Shown in pieces: positions 3,836 through 48,925 of a stretch of DNA of 64,000 bases. The notes under the pieces were generated by a model that was given only the letters and a program-made list of their open reading frames with translations, made no database searches and was not told where the DNA came from. Numbering within the stretch: position 1 is the first letter of the stretch; each line of letters starts with the position of its first letter. Source of the DNA: Escherichia phage anhysbys; sequence record NC_052656.1. One strand, written 5' to 3'. Position numbers and translations under genes: made by a program.

Positions 3836-4040
3836 TGTTAATCTCCTCTTCATATGTTGGTAGTGCATGGTATGCGATCACAGGTGCCAAGTCAAAATAA
3901 AAATGACCATTGATAACAGCTATCGTGCCATTGCGTGTTTTGTTAACTTCACAGAATCCCTTCTTGCCGTTTGCCATGATTACAAGCCACTCTCCGATAG
4001 GAACATCCTCGGTACCAGATACTTTAATCCATCCACTCAC
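3828..4040 (-). CDS. hypothetical protein
   Basis: ORF track 70 aa. Confidence 0.5.
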   Translation of the reverse strand: MSGWIKVSGTEDVPIGEWLVIMANGKKGFCEVNKTRNGTIAVINGHFYFDLAPVIAYHALPTYEEEINNG

Positions 4041-4297
4041 TTTACTTCCCCTTTGTAATCGGACACTATACCAGGTCTTACTTTTGCCTTAAGATGTTTC
4101 AACTCTGCCATAGGAGTTGCCACTTGTATAAGGTTAATAATTTCAACCTCGTAGATAGTATACTCATAACCCGCATACTTCCCGATGGAATGTAGGTATT
4201 TGATAGCATGTTCAGGCGAATCTGCTTCAACATACCCCAAATCTTTTGTAGTGCGGCCTTCACAGTCGCCTTCTGTAGTTACGTGATAAAGTGTCAT
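4037..4297 (-). CDS. hypothetical protein
   Basis: ORF track 86 aa. Confidence 0.5.
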   Translation of the reverse strand: MTLYHVTTEGDCEGRTTKDLGYVEADSPEHAIKYLHSIGKYAGYEYTIYEVEIINLIQVATPMAELKHLKAKVRPGIVSDYKGEVK

Positions 4298-43447: not shown

Positions 43448-44130
43448 TATTTCTCCTTATCTAGAAGATTGTTAGACAAAAACACTGCACGAGCAAAACC
43501 ACGTGCGGTTAGTGATCTAAGTTGTTTTGTTTTTGCACTAGCTCCACCTAAGCTTTTCCAACCCCAGAAGCAGCCTATATGATCTACTGGTTTCTTAACT
43601 GGTTGAACAAAACCATTGCCGTGCCAAATACAAGTTTTCTTTGTATACCCATCACGGGTAGGCATTTTAGGATGAAAGCTTCCTTCCTCTTCAAACAAAT
43701 ACCCACCATACTCATAAGGATCAAAGTAAAAATCGGGTTTACGCCATAAGGTTGAAAGTTTACCTACTGGGTTCTCAATCATCCAAGGAACATTATATTT
43801 GTTACCCAAAGCTTCCACTACACGAATATTAGCTAAAGCTTCATCCAATTCCTCTGTGCTGCGTTCGTGTTTGCTACCACTACCTGCTAACATAGTGCAA
43901 GGTGGAAATCCAAAAATAATATCGGGTTTAGGTATCCCATGATCTTCAGGGTTGAATGTAGAATCTATCCAGGCATTCACATAGGTTATGTTTGGGTGCT
44001 CCATCCTAACCTCGTATTTACCGTGATCCCCTTCATCAGCGTTTACACAAAAACACTTGTGACCTGCTTCGGCATAACGTAACACCATGATCCCAGATCC
44101 GTCAAACATAGACAAAACTGTTTTACTCAT
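43447..44130 (-). CDS. C5-cytosine methyltransferase-like protein
   Basis: Start refined to MSKTVLSMFDGSG (motif I-like F.G.G), FGFPPCT (PC motif IV-like), IENPVG (ENV motif VI-like); short for a complete MTase. Confidence 0.5.
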   Translation of the reverse strand: MSKTVLSMFDGSGIMVLRYAEAGHKCFCVNADEGDHGKYEVRMEHPNITYVNAWIDSTFNPEDHGIPKPDIIFGFPPCTMLAGSGSKHERSTEELDEALANIRVVEALGNKYNVPWMIENPVGKLSTLWRKPDFYFDPYEYGGYLFEEEGSFHPKMPTRDGYTKKTCIWHGNGFVQPVKKPVDHIGCFWGWKSLGGASAKTKQLRSLTARGFARAVFLSNNLLDKEK

Positions 44131-44536
44131 TACCCCTCCATTCAAGACAAGCCATAACTTTACGCCAATCACTTTCTGTAAGAAAAATCTCGTTTGCTTT
44201 CTTCCACAAATCTAAATCGTGAAGGGTTGGAATACGATATGTTAGTTCACAGAATCTATGCTCTTCTTCTGTAATATAACCAAAATGCAGAGCCACATCG
44301 TGAAACCAACACCAACCATGCATCTCTCGAACAACATGGTCATGTTGAGACATTATTTTATGCCGTAAACCTAACCAACAAGGAACAGATACTTTAGTAG
44401 TCTTTAATCTGTGATCAACAGTATTAGAGTATTCAATAATAGCTGTCAGTTTCAATCGTGCTTTTTCTAAATCCTCATGCGTCACTTTGAAATAACTTTC
44501 TGAAAGATATCCACACATATTAATAACCTCCTTCAA
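44123..44536 (-). CDS. hypothetical protein
   Basis: ORF track 137 aa. Confidence 0.55.
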   Translation of the reverse strand: MKEVINMCGYLSESYFKVTHEDLEKARLKLTAIIEYSNTVDHRLKTTKVSVPCWLGLRHKIMSQHDHVVREMHGWCWFHDVALHFGYITEEEHRFCELTYRIPTLHDLDLWKKANEIFLTESDWRKVMACLEWRGNE

Positions 44537-45461
44537 AAGGCTTTACTACATGTTGATTAGCTTTAAAACGTTCAACATAGTCGTTTTCGCCCATGTTTTC
44601 ATATAGCTTAATAACAACATAAAAGTTTTCCCAAGCATATTCCCTAAACCAACCACTAGTGATGGATGTGCAGACTTTAGATAAAGCCATTATAAAACTT
44701 TGCTTAGGGGTTGGACCTCCGATCTCTCCACCGAAAGGAATTTGTGAACGTTCCAAAGCCAAAACACACGCTTCTTCATAAACACCTAACAGGCGCACAT
44801 GTTTTGGTTGAGCAAAAAACTTTTCTTTGCTGGTCATAACTTCACTTCCATCTTTCATATAAGATTTATATGCTGGGGCATCCATTACCGCGATTGCTTC
44901 ATGGATAGAATCATGATCATAAACATACGGAACCTCATCACCTTTAAAAAAGTCTTTACTTTTTACGTTTAAGTTCGGATGAGAGTAAGTGTATGTTTCT
45001 TTCTCACGCAACTCATAAATACTCTTAAGATTTTCTGGGATCTTTGCGCCAAGTGACCGCATGAAATGAATATCTTTCATAGTTTTAAAGAAGTGAGGAC
45101 TATCCTTTTTAAAACGATGACTCATTTTAAGAAGGTAGAGCACATCTAAAGGAGCAACAACATGTCCAGCATAAGTTCGACGAACATCATCAGAATCTTC
45201 ACAATAACTAATCAAAGCTTCTGTGCTATCTCCTTGAGAAGCAATATCGTATTCCAAATGTGCACCAGCTATCATTTTGACATGGCCTTTGTTCCCTTTA
45301 CGTTCTACAAGTTCAACAAACTCATCTTGAGAGAACATTTTTGATAATTCTTCCCACTCTTGTTCTGTACACAGGTAATCTAAATCTACACAAGGGCGAT
45401 ACAAGTCTTTTCCCATGTCCATAGCATGAATTTGTAATGCACGGCTACCAATTAACACCAT
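44520..45461 (-). CDS. hypothetical protein (possible nucleotidyltransferase-like N-terminus)
   Basis: ORF track 313 aa; N-terminal LIGSRAL...DMGKD...DLDYL loosely resembles GS..D.D motif; TTGACA-17-TAAACT promoter upstream. Confidence 0.55.
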   Translation of the reverse strand: MVLIGSRALQIHAMDMGKDLYRPCVDLDYLCTEQEWEELSKMFSQDEFVELVERKGNKGHVKMIAGAHLEYDIASQGDSTEALISYCEDSDDVRRTYAGHVVAPLDVLYLLKMSHRFKKDSPHFFKTMKDIHFMRSLGAKIPENLKSIYELREKETYTYSHPNLNVKSKDFFKGDEVPYVYDHDSIHEAIAVMDAPAYKSYMKDGSEVMTSKEKFFAQPKHVRLLGVYEEACVLALERSQIPFGGEIGGPTPKQSFIMALSKVCTSITSGWFREYAWENFYVVIKLYENMGENDYVERFKANQHVVKPFEGGY

Positions 45462-45474
45462 AATATTTCTCCTC

Positions 45475-45520
45475 TATTGGTTGATAGGTTAAGTTTATCA
45501 AGCTTCCAGATTCCTGTCAA
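45475..45520 (-). promoter_or_regulatory. candidate promoter (minus strand)
   Basis: Reverse complement TTGACA-17-TAAACT upstream of gene 44520-45461. Confidence 0.45.
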
Positions 45521-45524
45521 TAAA

Positions 45525-45544
45525 AAACCCGCCGAAGCGGGTTA
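45525..45544 (-). terminator. rho-independent terminator (minus strand)
   Basis: Minus-strand AACCCGC-TTCG-GCGGGTT + TTTTTATT. Confidence 0.6.
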
Positions 45545-45551
45545 TTATTTA

Positions 45552-45824
45552 CTAACACATTGAGGAAGAAGAGATCCAAACACCTCTTGTGGTTAAACCA
45601 TTTTCATCCAACTCTACACCATAATCTTCACAAATGAAATCAATATAGTGATCTGCGGCTGGCGTTCCTGTAGGGTAATAAGTTTCTCCGTTACCGTAGT
45701 CACCTATCCAAGCTTGTTCCTGAAACTGTTCACAAAGTTCTTCAATTTCCTTACGAAACTTTCTTTGTGCTTGTTCCATCTCTTTAACTTTCTTTTTTAT
45801 CAGCAGTTCGCCTTCAGACTCCAC
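45552..45824 (-). CDS. small acidic protein with C-terminal GVWISSSSMC
   Basis: ORF track 90 aa; terminator hairpin downstream. Confidence 0.55.
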   Translation of the reverse strand: MESEGELLIKKKVKEMEQAQRKFRKEIEELCEQFQEQAWIGDYGNGETYYPTGTPAADHYIDFICEDYGVELDENGLTTRGVWISSSSMC

Positions 45825-45833
45825 AATCTCTCC

Positions 45834-46052
45834 TTAACAGCTACTACTGTGCCAAACGCCTTGAGAATTAACGACGAAACCATCATCACCTTCACCATAA
45901 CAAGAAGAGGATTGCCAATCTTCAAAACAGATTGCGTCATTTTCTAAACTAAGACCAAAACCAGCATCTTCAGCTTCTTTTGTAAGTTCGTCCACTAAAG
46001 CCATAATAGCTTGGGCTTTTTCAGTTAATTCTTCAACATTACGATCACTCAT
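45834..46052 (-). CDS. small acidic protein with C-terminal GVWHSSSC
   Basis: Track frame 45834-46094; start refined to MSDRNVEEL after AGAGGAGAAA. Confidence 0.5.
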   Translation of the reverse strand: MSDRNVEELTEKAQAIMALVDELTKEAEDAGFGLSLENDAICFEDWQSSSCYGEGDDGFVVNSQGVWHSSSC

Positions 46053-46360
46053 TAGTATTTCTCCTCTGGTTGGAAAACTGAACGACAGGCCCACATAGAA
46101 GCTTCTTTCAACTTAGTCTTTGCTATTGAAATTTGGTCAAGGCGGGTGGATATATTGGTAGACTCTTCCAAATCTTCACAATCATCCAGTTCAGCCCACA
46201 ATTCAGACATTAGAGCATCAAAGATTAATCCTAATCGAACTTCAGCATCTTTAATAGCATTCACTTTACCAATTTTGTCATCGGTATGCGGTTTATAACC
46301 TTTGATATCTTCGATTCCCACTTTACCTCCTATTAACAACTTAAAGAAGATGGATGCCAA
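46052..46360 (-). CDS. hypothetical protein
   Basis: ORF track 102 aa. Confidence 0.5.
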   Translation of the reverse strand: MASIFFKLLIGGKVGIEDIKGYKPHTDDKIGKVNAIKDAEVRLGLIFDALMSELWAELDDCEDLEESTNISTRLDQISIAKTKLKEASMWACRSVFQPEEKY

Positions 46361-46530
46361 TTTGTTCCAGTATTCTCATTTTCATCTTCTGGATCATAAT
46401 AACCTCCCATCCCATATTCAGGGGAGAAACTGAAACCTTCACCAGTCTCGTCTGCTAACTGTTCTGCTTCCGCTAAAGCCTCATAAGCTGCTTTTACGGC
46501 TTCTTCTACTGTTTTAAACTTGGTCGTCAT
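46333..46530 (-). CDS. small acidic protein with C-terminal NWHPSSLSC
   Basis: ORF track 65 aa. Confidence 0.5.
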   Translation of the reverse strand: MTTKFKTVEEAVKAAYEALAEAEQLADETGEGFSFSPEYGMGGYYDPEDENENTGTNWHPSSLSC

Positions 46531-46804
46531 AAAATTTCTCCTCTCCTAAAGACATGTTGACATGAAATGCACGATATGTAAATTCGTTGTCCGTTGTGTT
46601 TGAATAAAACTCAAATTGAACAACACCGTCTTGAGAAGACAGATACATGCCAATTTGAACTGTTCCTTCTGGTACCAGGTAAGCATACTCTGGACGTAGT
46701 GTTACATTGTAAAAATAAAGTTCCCCAACACCCATTTCATCCCAAGCTTCCCAAGCGGTAACGAAGTTACTTTCAAAACTTGTTACTGATCCGAACTCTG
46801 CCAT
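46514..46804 (-). CDS. hypothetical protein
   Basis: ORF track 96 aa. Confidence 0.55.
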   Translation of the reverse strand: MAEFGSVTSFESNFVTAWEAWDEMGVGELYFYNVTLRPEYAYLVPEGTVQIGMYLSSQDGVVQFEFYSNTTDNEFTYRAFHVNMSLGEEKFYDDQV

Positions 46805-47295
46805 AAAACCTCCTCAATCTTGTAGTTTGACTCCATCTCCAACACATTTCCACGAACGTCTCTCCGAAGAAAGGCATAAGCTTTATTAGGTATTGTAGAC
46901 TCATATTTAACCATATCTGGCACAGCAAAAGATACTACTACTCCTGCTGGGCTTCTGTCAAGAGCCTTATTAATATTTCTAAGGATATCGTTAGCCAAAA
47001 TTTCTGCCAATTCTCCAAGAACGGTTTCGGTTATATCTTTATATCCCATTAAGTATTTGTTGATATCTTTCATCTCTGTATTGTTCAGAGTATAATCCAA
47101 AGGATAGAAATTCAAAGCGGAGTCACTTTTATGTGTCCACATGAAATGCACCCGATCCGAGCAGAATCGTAACCCTCTTTGAAGAATATCTTCTACAACA
47201 GGCAGAATTTCTTTTGTCACATCATTAACCATGTTGTAATCTAAGATTTCTGCCAAGTTTGTTCTTTGTTCACCACGTTTACGTTTAGGAATCAC
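46783..47295 (-). CDS. hypothetical protein
   Basis: ORF track 170 aa. Confidence 0.55.
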   Translation of the reverse strand: MIPKRKRGEQRTNLAEILDYNMVNDVTKEILPVVEDILQRGLRFCSDRVHFMWTHKSDSALNFYPLDYTLNNTEMKDINKYLMGYKDITETVLGELAEILANDILRNINKALDRSPAGVVVSFAVPDMVKYESTIPNKAYAFLRRDVRGNVLEMESNYKIEEVLWQSSDQ

Positions 47296-47890
47296 TTGTT
47301 ATTGCCCTCATTACCAAAGGTCGTAGAAAATCGTAAATCTCTTGTTTTGTTTTCCCACGAATGTTTAAACAAGGAACATTATTGGCTTTAGCTATCTTCC
47401 AAGCCGTAGCTGTTCCACCTTTTGCATCTCCATGTTTATCAGTATTAGCACAAGCCAACAAGAAACATGATGGAGCAGGATTCTCCAAATCTCTACCTAA
47501 CACTTGATGCACATTACGTTGGTGCAATTTTCTAGCACCCTGCTTAAGCTTTTCATAGGCTGGGTGAACATCTTTGATCCATTGCACAGAGATAGCATAG
47601 TTCATTGTATCTGGTTTTGCAAGAACAATAACATCCCCTGGAATCTGATTACCTTTGAAATTTTCCCAAGGAACATAAATCTCCTTGTTAGTAGGATTTT
47701 CAGACTCTTGGACACCTGTTTCAAAAGCAGAATCACTACCCTCTGCCTTCCCAGACCTTAATTTAAACCCAAGGTTTGAAAGCCATTTCCCTATGCCTAC
47801 CATCAAAGCCCACTCTTCTTCGGATATGTCTCTACTTCCAACTCCCGTATAGAACAGTTCTGCCATAATCACCTCAACAAGTAATTTCAA
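47285..47890 (-). CDS. DprA/Smf-like Rossmann-fold protein
   Basis: TGVGSRDIS..., RSGKAEGSDSAFETG, GGTATAWKIAKANNVPCLNI resemble DprA/SLOG-type nucleotide-binding fold (by eye). Confidence 0.5.
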   Translation of the reverse strand: MKLLVEVIMAELFYTGVGSRDISEEEWALMVGIGKWLSNLGFKLRSGKAEGSDSAFETGVQESENPTNKEIYVPWENFKGNQIPGDVIVLAKPDTMNYAISVQWIKDVHPAYEKLKQGARKLHQRNVHQVLGRDLENPAPSCFLLACANTDKHGDAKGGTATAWKIAKANNVPCLNIRGKTKQEIYDFLRPLVMRAITSDS

Positions 47891-48182
47891 AAGGTGTATA
47901 GGGTTCCGTATTTCTCATGATCCAAGGACTGCTAGGATTGCTCGGATCATAAGGGCCAAAAGGTTTTATGGTAGGTTGTGTTTCTTTCTTCTGAATCTCT
48001 TCAAAAATACGACGAAGTTCAGAATATTCTTGATCCACCATAAGATTCGGTGCATCTGATTCTACAGCTTGCAGGTTATCTTCCTTAAGAACAATCTCAC
48101 GAACAAGATTAACATCTTCTGTTTCTAAGATAACTTCTTTACGGATATTACCTACACTTTGAATAATTGTAATCTTATACAT
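47874..48182 (-). CDS. hypothetical protein
   Basis: ORF track 102 aa. Confidence 0.5.
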   Translation of the reverse strand: MYKITIIQSVGNIRKEVILETEDVNLVREIVLKEDNLQAVESDAPNLMVDQEYSELRRIFEEIQKKETQPTIKPFGPYDPSNPSSPWIMRNTEPYTPFEITC

Positions 48183-48925
48183 TAATCCTCCTCAAGAGTT
48201 GAATAAAATTGAAGACCACCGTCCATATCGAAATAAGCAAATGTTAAGTTATTATTGAACACAGATCCAGTATCCATATAAACACGATTCGCATTGATAA
48301 TAGGTGTTTTTACATAAGAGTGTCCATGAAACACATAATCCACACCCATCACAACAGGAAGTTTCATTCCCTCTTTAGCACAATCCACCATATCTCTGTC
48401 CCACATAAGTGCTTCAGCAAAACGGTTTTCCTGTGTTTTTGTCATCTTCGAAGTGTATTCTGGAATATCTGTTACAGGGAGATATTCCAAAGAAGACGGA
48501 TACCCACCATGAATAAACGCAAGTTTCATGCCTCTGTAGTTAACAATGAGAACAACAGGTAAATCTTCTGTCATCATTGCTAAGGCTGTAGCTCCTTCTT
48601 CACCACATTCTTCAAAGACCGTATATCCTCCATTTTGATACCAACACTCGTAGTAGCTACGATCTCCTTCCAGCATACCTTTAATCATCATGTCTTCATG
48701 ATTGCCACGAATAGCGTAGCGATTGTGTTTACGAGTAAATTCTAAAACACAACGAAAATTTTGCTTTCCACGGTCAGTAAGATCTCCTAGAGATACAACC
48801 ACATCTGTATCTCGGATACCTAACTTTGCCTTTCCTTTTTCATACAAATTATAACAACCGTGTAGATCTCCAATTATAAAAAGATCTTGATCGCTTTTAA
48901 CAGTAATTTCTCTGTGTATGATCAC
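48182..48925 (-). CDS. Ser/Thr protein phosphatase (calcineurin-like metallophosphoesterase)
   Basis: GDLHGC, GDLTDRG, GNHE signature motifs in order. Confidence 0.8.
   Translation of the reverse strand: MIIHREITVKSDQDLFIIGDLHGCYNLYEKGKAKLGIRDTDVVVSLGDLTDRGKQNFRCVLEFTRKHNRYAIRGNHEDMMIKGMLEGDRSYYECWYQNGGYTVFEECGEEGATALAMMTEDLPVVLIVNYRGMKLAFIHGGYPSSLEYLPVTDIPEYTSKMTKTQENRFAEALMWDRDMVDCAKEGMKLPVVMGVDYVFHGHSYVKTPIINANRVYMDTGSVFNNNLTFAYFDMDGGLQFYSTLEED

Follow-up and report, generated by a model that had tools for sequence, protein, structure and literature searches.

Three small ORFs with a common serine-rich ending and the gene for a predicted nucleotidyltransferase lie on the minus strand of the 64-kb window, by which we mean the whole stretch of phage anhysbys DNA that was analysed. 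The source genome is that of a phAPEC8-like Phapecoctavirus, and annotated coding sequences for the orthologues of all three proteins (here called A, B, and C) are present in phage phAPEC8. A GGAG/GAGG ribosome-binding site is found 5–9 nt 5' of each of the three ORFs. The features of the locus are as follows.

44520-45461, minus strand: predicted nucleotidyltransferase (phAPEC8 gp192), 313 aa, DUF7277 plus DUF7275, phrog_2141
45492-45520, minus strand: sigma-70-like promoter match between the terminator and the enzyme gene (TTGACA, 17-nt spacer, TAAACT, TG extension)
45526-45543, minus strand: intrinsic-terminator-like hairpin, 7-bp stem with 5 GC pairs followed by a T-run, 9 nt past the stop of A
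45552-45824, minus strand: protein A (phAPEC8 gp191), 90 aa, GTG start, end GVWISSSSMC, AlphaFold2 pLDDT 94.6
45555-45578, minus strand: tag codons of protein A
45834-46052, minus strand: protein B (phAPEC8 gp190), 72 aa from ATG, end GVWHSSSC
45837-45854, minus strand: terminal tag of protein B, VWHSSSC, a short form minus two spacer residues
45900-45917, minus strand: internal tag of protein B, DWQSSSC, followed by YGEG
46052-46321, minus strand: Acb2/Vs.4-family gene between B and C (phAPEC8 gp189), 89 aa, GTG start, Pfam PF24729
46333-46530, minus strand: protein C (phAPEC8 gp188), 65 aa, AEQLADETGEGFSFSPEYGMGGYYDP ... NWHPSSLSC
46336-46359, minus strand: tag codons of protein C
46514-46804, minus strand: protein without the tag (phAPEC8 gp187, phrog_4991), 96 aa, overlapping the start of C

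The three ORFs had been singled out in an earlier note on this DNA as small acidic proteins with a shared motif at the extreme C-terminus; their endings and positions are confirmed, on the minus strand, and so is their acidity (pI 4.05–4.40, net charge −10 to −13). The internal tag of B, the full-length homology of the three proteins, the Acb2 gene between B and C, and the downstream partner gene had gone unmentioned there.

When the 64-kb window was scanned in six frames, A, B, and C alone among 470 stop-to-stop ORFs of 50 aa or more had the motif at their end, and in the near-identical complete genome MG065650 (150 kb) the motif-ending ORFs are the same three, so that the proposed search for the motif elsewhere returned nothing further from either sequence. 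With about 0.015 such ORFs expected in the window from composition and three observed, and with the motif conserved over hundreds of clusters, chance is ruled out as its source. A shared nucleotide repeat, the explanation that had been set against a protein motif, is ruled out as well because the Ser codons of the tag come from different families among the paralogues (TCT/TCC/TCA in A and C, AGT/AGT/AGC in B); conservation at the protein level is also wide.

The phrog_899 family and its C-terminal tail

On the evidence of their matches to phrog_899 (E 5.1e-14 for A, 1.4e-5 for B, and 1.4e-13 for C), all of which terminate at profile positions 218–221 of 221, A, B, and C are paralogues of one large family. 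This family comprises at least 574 clusters at 50% identity; its function is unannotated, and neither Pfam nor NCBIfam holds a model for these proteins. In an alignment of 65 diverse members, each of which matches phrog_899, the sole invariant columns are W(-7), S(-4), S(-3), and C(0) of the tail together with the Tyr-Gly of YG.GG. Among the 148 best family representatives (50%-identity clusters, ranked with a profile that itself includes the motif), 144 have Cys as the very last residue and agree without exception at W(-7), S(-4), S(-3), and C(0), which bears out the placement of the motif at the extreme C-terminus.

Besides the tail, the family-wide motifs are an N-terminal helix AE.[IL]ADE, a hairpin YG.GG..Y.P, and YGMGG, while the sequence outside these constant motifs is variable and includes an insert of 1 to 108 residues. 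A member consists of an acidic N-terminal helix, a small YG.GG hairpin, a variable acidic insert, and the invariant tail G-W-x-[S/P/A]-S-S-x-x-Cys-COOH; in many members, for example C, the acidic linker is merely 10–20 residues long. A and C both have the C-terminal W-x-[S/P/A]-S-S-x-x-C, the YG.GG hairpin, and the acidic N-terminal helix that define the family, and C, which matches the family HMM with E 7.6e-25, is the most canonical member among the window proteins. In B these features take a variant form, with a short tag, YGEG for YGMGG, and the extra internal tag. JS98 orf126 and 27 enzyme-anchored loci share this two-tag architecture, and we assign B to a divergent two-tag subfamily; short-form tags (W-x-S-S-S-C) occur in 36 of 269 tagged proteins, B included. 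Because A, B, and C all match phrog_899 and share helix and hairpin motifs beyond the tail, they are homologous over their full length, and the description of them as otherwise divergent proteins does not hold.

The family occurs almost only in lytic phages, with hosts from many genera, and its genes are arranged as tandem arrays of one to six paralogues. Bacterial genomes yielded nine matches among 185,579 species genomes, every one on a MAG contig, ruling out a prophage or bacterial origin. T4-like homologues of protein A were found, and the label 'inhibitor of prohead protease' on the ESCO10 homologue is an annotation artefact because T4 late-gene names were assigned in order to unrelated small ORFs. 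Neither the tag family nor the enzyme was found in the 58–76 kb region of T4, the counterpart of the JS98 locus.

In the AlphaFold2 model of protein A (pLDDT 94.6), the chain forms a compact mini-domain with a predicted long N-terminal helix; no PDB relative of this predicted mini-fold was found. Because the model puts the Trp within β-strand 82–85 and SSSM within a short helix at 86–89 (motif pLDDT about 88–98), the prediction makes the motif part of the fold too, and not a free tail. The proposal that it is a recognition tag rather than a fold element is therefore only half sustained: the conserved end position speaks for a tag, while the modeled position inside the mini-domain speaks against setting the fold aside.

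The partner enzyme and its coupling to the tag genes

The product of the gene at 44520-45461 matches DUF7275 with 254.7 bits and DUF7277 with 52.5 bits (Pfam cut-off 27). It contains the catalytic signature hG[GS]...[DE]h[DE]h...h[DE]h, with G5, S6, D26, D28, and E70 invariant in 28 homologues that are 51–81% identical to the window protein, and it has the alpha/beta core fold of nucleotidyltransferases. Its fold matches are MenT1, MenT3, MenT4, ANT(2''), and LnuA, of which MenT1 is structurally closest and ANT(2'') and LnuA are given in the match descriptions as adenylyltransferases with antibiotic substrates. The enzyme is thus predicted to be a pol-beta-fold nucleotidyltransferase of the MenT/ANT/Lnu type, and it looks catalytically competent because the hG[GS]...DxD...E signature is invariant and the fold matches known nucleotidyltransferases. 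Its likeness to MenT and AbiEii is one of fold only; no match to AbiEii/DUF1814 or AbiE models was found at E <= 0.1 (Pfam, PADLOC), and no PDB sequence match at E <= 10. An invariant helix after the core, K112-x-S-H115-R116, could be the counterpart of DUF1814 motif III. The C-terminal domain is large, conserved, and helical, the DUF7275 domain is conserved and rich in His/Asp/Cys, and the whole protein is mildly acidic, with a median pI of 5.8.

The tag family is genetically coupled to this single enzyme, a protein of about 310 aa across the loci. Viral loci anchored on the family were collected by matching DNA to a degenerate version of AYGMGG.Y. In 37 of 48 of them the enzyme is encoded on the same strand at a distance of 0–1.3 kb, 33 times downstream; the other 11 have less than 1.75 kb of downstream flank, and all 37 loci with enough flank contain the enzyme. 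Conversely, one to six tagged ORFs lie upstream on the same strand in 76 of 80 enzyme-anchored loci, against 3 of 80 for the downstream control zone and 0 of 80 for either opposite-strand zone under the same criterion, and when the enzymes are clustered at 70% identity, a tagged ORF precedes the enzyme gene in 29 of the 30 clusters. No gene besides the enzyme is common to the loci across lineages, and the pair is kept in T4-like phages, in which unrelated genes intervene between tag genes and enzyme gene, in phAPEC8-like phages, and in metagenomic viral contigs of about 10 kb to >400 kb. No tagged neighbour was found for the distant enzyme relatives in KVP40 or a Gordonia phage. Co-inheritance in nearly every locus examined gives strong indirect support to the idea, raised from the three ORFs alone, that the motif serves a partner enzyme. 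Because the tag family almost always stands directly upstream of one predicted enzyme, the pair probably constitutes an as yet undescribed module of lytic phages made up of an enzyme and its clients; literature searches on phrog_899, DUF7275, DUF7277, phage YGMGG proteins, and Straboviridae nucleotidyltransferase/C-terminal cysteine found nothing relevant.

The other features around the array are more local. The product of 46052-46321 scores 70.7 bits (cut-off 27; E 1.2e-19) with PF24729 (Acb2_Tad1_hairpin) and is linked by jackhmmer to T4 vs.4, but jackhmmer found no Acb2 homologue in other tag-family loci; because the adjacency is confined to phAPEC8-like sequences, we place the gene outside the conserved module and reject a general linkage to Acb2/anti-CBASS. 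The gp187 protein, a homologue of which lies inside the tag-gene arrays of nine enzyme-anchored loci, is possibly a lineage-specific accessory. Linkage to tRNA genes was also rejected, since proximity to tRNA clusters is limited to T4-like and Gordonia phages; the 64-kb window contains no tRNA genes. Counter-defence or accessory genes, namely Acb2, DNA methyltransferases, Sir2, and a DprA-like protein, are also found in the neighbourhood. Finally, the hairpin at 45526-45543 is an ARNold terminator in the phAPEC8 annotation, and the promoter call is a consensus match only (nine such matches in the region vs 8.6 expected from shuffles); because both stand between the tag genes and the enzyme gene, the enzyme may be transcribed apart from the tag genes in phage anhysbys.

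Possible roles of the tail

We consider it probable that the invariant tail is the part of the small proteins that engages the enzyme. As to the outcome of this contact, we tentatively favor a model, to which we give somewhat less than an even chance, whereby the small proteins are the enzyme's protein clients and the tail is most likely a site of Ser nucleotidylation. In this model, the acidic body would dock in the cleft that MenT-type enzymes use for the nucleic-acid acceptor, the tail would then enter the active site, and an NMP would be moved from an NTP onto the hydroxyl of the invariant Ser(-4) or Ser(-3), with the Trp and the terminal Cys/carboxylate acting as positioning elements. Paralogues with different inserts would represent different payloads of a single enzyme, probably for host takeover or counter-defence. 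The model is supported by the conservation of the tail while the remainder of the protein varies, by the coupling to the enzyme and its specificity, no other gene being shared across lineages, and by the apparent catalytic competence of the enzyme; moreover, one enzyme with several diversified tandem tag genes is the pattern expected of an enzyme and its substrates. In agreement with this model, pol-beta-type MntA adenylylates the neighbour-encoded HepT (PMC7641770).

Several points weigh against the small proteins being clients. The packed Trp and the SSS turn of the predicted fold would suit a structural role, and the tail would have to unfold or be surface-exposed; short-form tags alter the Ser-to-Cys spacing, which is awkward for a strict active-site register; the tag genes are parted from the enzyme gene by the terminator and the promoter-like site here and by unrelated genes in T4-like phages; and the distant enzyme relatives of KVP40 and the Gordonia phage lack a tagged neighbour. 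Charge complementarity is not evident at the whole-protein level because the enzyme is itself slightly acidic. By analogy, the closest structural relative, MenT1, acts on tRNA and is inhibited by MenA1 (PMC10435456).

This last point leads to a different relation between the same partners, which we judge unlikely: the enzyme would be MenT-like, with tRNA or another host or phage nucleic acid as its substrate, and the small proteins would inhibit it, set its timing, or retune it. As acidic helical proteins they would lie across the active-site cleft, with the tail plugging the nucleotide or acceptor site or triggering self-modification in the manner of MenA1. MenA1 (68 aa, with a long central helix) neutralises MenT1: it is bound to two protomers of the enzyme, has been proposed to occlude the active site, and brings about auto-phosphorylation (PMC10435456, PMC11375011). 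In MenAT1/AbiE (DUF1814) systems, the gene of a small helical protein precedes that of the enzyme (PMC10435456); likewise, A, B, and C are small (65–90 aa) and strongly acidic, their predicted N-terminal helix is long, and their genes precede the enzyme gene. However, the enzyme lies outside DUF1814/AbiEii by sequence, with no match to these models in Pfam or PADLOC, and in place of a single small partner there are one to six diversified ones, when as many as six diversified paralogues per enzyme gene are unexpected of a stoichiometric inhibitor. Furthermore, the C-terminus of MenA1 is dispensable (PMC10435456), whereas the invariant C-terminal W-x-S-S-S-x-x-C is the most conserved part of the tag family. 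The module is also limited to phages, being missing from bacterial genomes save the nine MAG contigs. Toxin–antitoxin pairs are typically tightly coupled, whereas here the spacing is variable and terminator-like and promoter-like sites separate the tag genes from the enzyme.

It is improbable, in our estimation, that the motif serves the fold only, with the Trp as core, Ser-Ser as a helix cap, and the Cys as a packing residue or metal ligand. The small proteins would then be stand-alone effectors, for example nucleic-acid mimics or anti-defence proteins, and the nucleotidyltransferase would be merely syntenic or in the same pathway and leave the tail untouched. The strand and helical turn modeled for the motif (pLDDT about 88–98), the high acidity of the proteins, and the presence of Acb2 within the array of phage anhysbys are consistent with such a role, but synteny alone leaves unexplained why exactly one pair is retained while all other neighbours differ. 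Structural Ser caps usually accept Thr, Asp, or Asn, whereas none of the 144 sequences shows a substitution at S(-4) or S(-3). The chain ends exactly at the Cys in 144 of 148, which points to a function of the free C-terminus.

The small proteins could also be adaptors or specificity subunits, the constant helix-hairpin-tail docking on the enzyme and the variable acidic insert recruiting a host target for nucleotidylation. Such a role would account for a constant module joined to a hypervariable insert (1–108 residues), for several paralogues per phage beside a single conserved enzyme, and for a neighbourhood with Acb2, DNA methyltransferases, Sir2, and a DprA-like protein; we nevertheless see little chance of it, since an acidic linker of 10–20 residues, as in C and many other members, is hardly a target-binding domain, and adaptors of pol-beta nucleotidyltransferases have, to our knowledge, no precedent. 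That the tail is a signal for host machinery (degron, secretion, lipidation, or packaging) is very unlikely indeed: its extreme C-terminal position, from which a secretion or proteolysis tag had been suggested, is the one point in favor, the proteins have no signal peptide or transmembrane segment, the tail resembles no bacterial C-terminal sorting or degradation signal known to us, and across many host genera the phage-encoded enzyme is almost always alongside.

Returning to the small proteins as clients, we regard it as possible, if doubtful, that the DUF7277/DUF7275 nucleotidyltransferase puts onto the invariant tail W-x-S-S-S-x-x-Cys-COOH a protein modification of a hitherto unknown kind. 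Minimally, this would be O-nucleotidylation of Ser(-4)/Ser(-3) or the priming of a short nucleotide chain there. More speculatively, the nucleotidylated Ser would be eliminated and the terminal Cys thiol would attack to give a lanthionine-like C-terminal ring, a step that the His/Asp/Cys-rich DUF7275 domain might catalyse.

Known systems and implications

Type VII HEPN-MNT (HepT/MntA) systems resemble the proposed module in that a minimal pol-beta nucleotidyltransferase adenylylates the protein of the adjacent gene (PMC7641770), a reaction that is only proposed here. The partner here is not a HEPN RNase, the gene order is different, and there are multiple paralogous partners and no evident toxin. 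The acceptor in HepT is a Tyr near the active site, whereas the candidate acceptor here is a Ser of the C-terminal tail. RiPP clusters may contain many precursor paralogues, as for the prochlorosins and ProcM, and share with the locus tandem diversified small ORFs, an invariant Ser/Cys-rich motif, and a single conserved enzyme gene adjoining them. Unlike RiPP clusters, the locus encodes folded proteins of 65–150 aa instead of leader-plus-core peptides, a nucleotidyltransferase instead of LanM, LanB, YcaO, or radical-SAM enzymes, and no protease or exporter, and the setting is a lytic phage; searches with PHROGs, Pfam, and PADLOC found no RiPP maturase domain (LanB/C/M, YcaO, radical SAM) at 44123-47890. 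In microcin C, the E1/ThiF-like MccB adenylates the terminal Asn carboxamide of the heptapeptide MccA, so that in both cases an encoded polypeptide is nucleotidylated (here as proposed) at the extreme C-terminus with an invariant last residue, although the enzyme here has a pol-beta fold and the last residue is Cys. Lastly, the anti-CBASS sponge Acb2 (T4 Vs.4) offers a parallel as a small phage counter-defence protein with a true homologue embedded in the array, but it has no sequence relation to the tag family and adjoins the array only in phAPEC8-like sequences.

If our inference holds, many large virulent phages possess an undescribed two-component system made up of one nucleotidyltransferase and a variable set of small acidic proteins with an invariant C-terminal tail. 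Its carriers include most non-T4 relatives among the T-even phages, the phAPEC8 group, Pseudomonas and Acinetobacter myophages, and large metagenomic viral contigs, and the genes concerned lie in accessory/counter-defence regions of phages used for therapy. DUF7275, DUF7277, and PHROG 899 thereby gain a concrete hypothesis that is open to mass spectrometry and might lead to a new protein modification or a new control of MenT-type enzymes, and the motif would be a simple sequence handle by which the enzyme's clients could all be found, whatever the phage genome. Should the tail prove to be the site of a new modification, lytic phages would draw on tandem paralogues for families of post-translationally 'armed' acidic effectors, in effect a RiPP-like strategy carried over to folded proteins.

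Three tailed proteins of a phAPEC8-like phage

The window derives from a phAPEC8-like Phapecoctavirus (Stephanstirmvirinae), and its segment 44500-47900 shares 99.3% identity with several Escherichia phages. The three minus-strand ORFs whose C-termini the earlier note had quoted, here called proteins A, B and C, are present and are also annotated CDSs in phAPEC8; each is preceded by a Shine-Dalgarno sequence, and all are strongly acidic (pI 4.05-4.40, net charge -10 to -13).

Features in minus-strand order
46514-46804, minus: gp187-like gene, which recurs within the arrays of 9 other loci
46333-46530, minus: protein C, 65 aa, C-terminus NWHPSSLSC (phAPEC8 gp188)
46052-46321, minus: homologue of the Acb2/T4 Vs.4 family of anti-CBASS sponges (Pfam PF24729, E 1.2e-19)
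45834-46052, minus: protein B, 72 aa from ATG, C-terminus GVWHSSSC (phAPEC8 gp190)
45552-45824, minus: protein A, 90 aa, C-terminus GVWISSSSMC (phAPEC8 gp191)
45526-45543, minus: terminator-like hairpin
45492-45520, minus: promoter-like site TTGACA-17-TAAACT
44520-45461, minus: enzyme gene (313 aa)

The six frames of the window contain 470 stop-to-stop ORFs of 50 aa or more, and of these A, B and C alone end in the tail, or tag, W-x-S-S-S-(x-x)-C, against about 0.015 expected from composition; a search of a near-identical complete genome (150 kb) returned the same three and no further motif-ended ORF. The possibility raised earlier that a nucleotide repeat is the source of the shared tail is ruled out, because the tag serines are encoded by TCN or AGY codons that differ between genes, which argues that the likeness of the tails is selected at the protein level. 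Protein B has a second, internal copy (DWQSSSC, 45900-45917). In this protein and its T4-like counterparts (for example, retrieved locus L002, 4914-5138) the internal W-x-S-S-x-C directly precedes YGEG, where canonical relatives have YGMGG, and the terminal tag is without the two spacer residues; the internal tag has the appearance of a tail duplicated within the protein or inserted into it.

The Acb2 homologue, 'hypothetical' in phAPEC8 (gp189), is inserted between tag genes B and C, its stop overlapping the start of B by one base (TAATG), and its adjacency to the array is specific to phAPEC8-like sequences. The gp187-like protein (96 aa, phrog_4991, motif ...SF..W.GWDE...G..YFY.V.L...) overlaps the start of C and has no tag; examples within other arrays are L084 3183-3476 and L089 3692-3958. 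The wider neighbourhood contains accessory genes, among them a DprA-like protein, a NinI-like phosphatase, DNA methyltransferases and Sir2. The gene annotated as a 'DprA-like DNA recombination mediator' (47285-47890, minus) belongs to the operon of the tag genes, encodes only 201 aa, has only a faint ShosA match (E 0.02) and occurs close to the family in one further lineage (L059). The anti-TIR protein Atd1 has been listed in Phapecoctavirus by the AntiDefenseFinder paper (PMC11724313).

A family with an invariant tail

A, B and C all match phrog_899, a PHROG family of unknown function, to the end of the profile, and have no match in Pfam, NCBIfam or PADLOC. Judged by their sequences they are paralogues of one large family, and not the 'otherwise divergent' proteins first supposed. 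A word-indexed search returned orthologues among related phages as well as T4-like homologues; tblastn with protein A hit 414 phage records, the majority from T4-like phages of Escherichia, Klebsiella, Enterobacter and Aeromonas, and when 1.84 billion 50%-identity representatives were searched exhaustively with a profile, 574 clusters reached E <= 0.001. The 148 best-scoring representatives were ranked by a profile containing the motif, making counts of tail conservation somewhat circular; 144 of them end exactly on Cys and, counting back from this residue as 0, all 144 have Ser at -4 and -3 and 143 have Trp at -7; Ser, Pro or Ala occupies position -5. The same set shows an AE.[IL]ADE helix followed by an F.F strand, YGMGG (127/148) and a mean net charge of -7; 88 have a single Cys, so that neither an intramolecular disulfide nor a zinc site is a general feature. 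In an alignment of 65 diverse members, all matching phrog_899, the only invariant columns are Y, G, W, S, S and C, and across the family the segment from hairpin to Trp spans 1 to 108 residues.

The members are also multiplied in tandem. Arrays of 1-5 were present in 44 of 78 viral contigs retrieved via a degenerate pattern for AYGMGG.Y, and in JS98, a T4-like phage, a run of five consecutive genes has the endings AWVSSSAMC, GWVSSSSEC, SWVSSSYEC, FWFSSSMSC and IWYPSSC, the last having the two-tag architecture of protein B.

In an AlphaFold2 model of protein A (21-sequence alignment, pLDDT 94.6), a long N-terminal helix (4-34) accompanies a small sheet, with the Trp within strand 82-85 and SSSM forming a short helix (86-89). 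The tail is thus predicted to be part of a compact, apparently new mini-fold rather than a disordered appendage. The earlier note had proposed a recognition tag that is not a fold element; the extreme C-terminal position is borne out across the family, but the model packs the tail within the fold.

The GenBank annotation of the T4-like phage ESCO10 (L003, OM386655.1) gives T4 late-gene names (head vertex protein, RNA ligase 2, hoc, 'inhibitor of prohead protease', helicase, baseplate proteins) in order to unrelated small ORFs at 3941-4234 and neighbouring positions; the labels mismatch their ORFs and are not usable for this stretch. MG065650.1 ('Campylobacter phage B15', flagged UNVERIFIED) and OP562383.1 ('Acinetobacter phage vB_AbaM_ABPW7') are ~99% identical to E. 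coli Phapecoctavirus genomes here, and their host labels look doubtful.

Near-obligatory coupling to a predicted nucleotidyltransferase

The family is genetically coupled, near-obligatorily and directionally, to a predicted, catalytically intact nucleotidyltransferase. Neighbour clustering around family members gave one dominant neighbour, homologous to the 313-aa protein whose gene lies directly downstream of that for protein A. Of 48 family loci (the 44 viral contigs, the window and three phage-record loci), 37 contain this enzyme, always on the same strand and in 33 cases downstream at 0-1.3 kb; the other 11 all have < 1.75 kb of downstream sequence. Conversely, 73 of 80 loci anchored on the enzyme have 1-6 upstream same-strand ORFs matching the family HMM or the tail pattern, and visual inspection adds three with variant tails (W.QSSC, W.TSS..C). 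When a single, slightly relaxed criterion is used for four zones of about 1,100-1,300 ORFs each, tagged ORFs lie upstream on the same strand in 76/80 loci, downstream on the same strand in 3/80 and in either opposite-strand zone in 0/80. When enzymes are collapsed at 70% identity, 29 of 30 clusters have a tagged upstream ORF, and besides the tag-gene families no gene cluster near the anchored enzymes is common to several lineages. Some larger proteins encoded upstream (139-155 aa) go undetected by the family HMM, yet have the same tail after a similar helix-hairpin segment.

The enzyme comprises Pfam DUF7277 and DUF7275 and belongs to phrog_2141, all uncharacterised families; its homologues fill > 2,200 clusters, none informatively named, one homologue being labelled 'putative nucleotidyltransferase' in a GenBank record. 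Across 28 diverse homologues G5-S6 ... D26-x-D28 ... E70, the pol-beta nucleotidyltransferase signature, is invariant, and the C-terminal two-thirds contain many invariant His, Asp, Tyr, Lys and Arg residues and one Cys (for example, in SPHF.K, Y.YDHD..H and KVCTSITSG.FR). Membership in AbiEii/DUF1814 was not found by sequence; the closest fold relatives include the toxin nucleotidyltransferase MenT1, the best match, together with ANT(2'') and LnuA.

Distant relatives in Vibrio phage KVP40 (L173 3043-4100) and Gordonia phage Aphelion (L172 3312-4393) are shorter (253-263 aa), keep GS...DxD and have no tagged neighbour. Both adjoin another small acidic protein, starting M..RY.[FW].EI[IL]GE, which lies upstream of the enzyme relative in KVP40 and downstream of it in Aphelion and may represent a different partner family; in Aphelion a tRNA cluster is found 1.2 kb away from the pair. 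Bacterial and archaeal species genomes yielded the enzyme at 9 loci only, all on MAG contigs, and the module is therefore essentially confined to phages. These contigs (L163-L171; some of them 70-380 kb long), assigned to Saccharibacteria, Chitinophagales, Bacteriovoracales, Thermosynechococcus and Flavobacteria, probably represent phage sequence that was binned into MAGs. The NinI-like Ser/Thr (calcineurin-type) phosphatase gene (48182-48925, minus) occurs in 11/80 enzyme-anchored loci (12/81 including the window), an association much weaker than that of the enzyme; the phosphatase might act on the same tag serines.

Possible roles of the small proteins

The tail is quite probably the feature by which the small proteins engage the enzyme. 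Our preferred reading, held tentatively, is that they are its protein substrates and that the enzyme would nucleotidylate the invariant tail serines. We favor this reading because one enzyme pairs with many diversified small genes, as enzymes and substrates do; because ANT(2'') and LnuA, two adenylyltransferases with antibiotic substrates, are among its closest relatives in fold; and because MntA, a pol-beta enzyme, adenylylates the neighbour-encoded protein HepT (PMC7641770). Against it stand the predicted packing of the tail in the fold, the short forms of some tags and, in some phages, intervening genes or a terminator between tag genes and enzyme. The main rival, which we regard as rather unlikely, is that the small proteins regulate the enzyme as MenA1 does its toxin: MenT1, the best fold match, has a 68-aa helical partner, encoded upstream, that blocks it and also triggers its auto-phosphorylation (PMC10435456, PMC11375011). 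Adaptor proteins, a purely structural motif and a signal read by the host are possible at lower probability.

No paper mentioning the tag family, the enzyme or the tail motif was found, and both families are catalogued only as being of unknown function. The pairing of a nucleotidyltransferase with a small partner encoded next to it is of a kind known in toxin–antitoxin biology. What appears to be new here is the tail motif, the multi-paralogue arrays, the extra DUF7275 domain and the restriction to phages; that the tail is the site of a new C-terminal protein modification, possibly beyond nucleotidylation, is a more doubtful proposition than the substrate reading.
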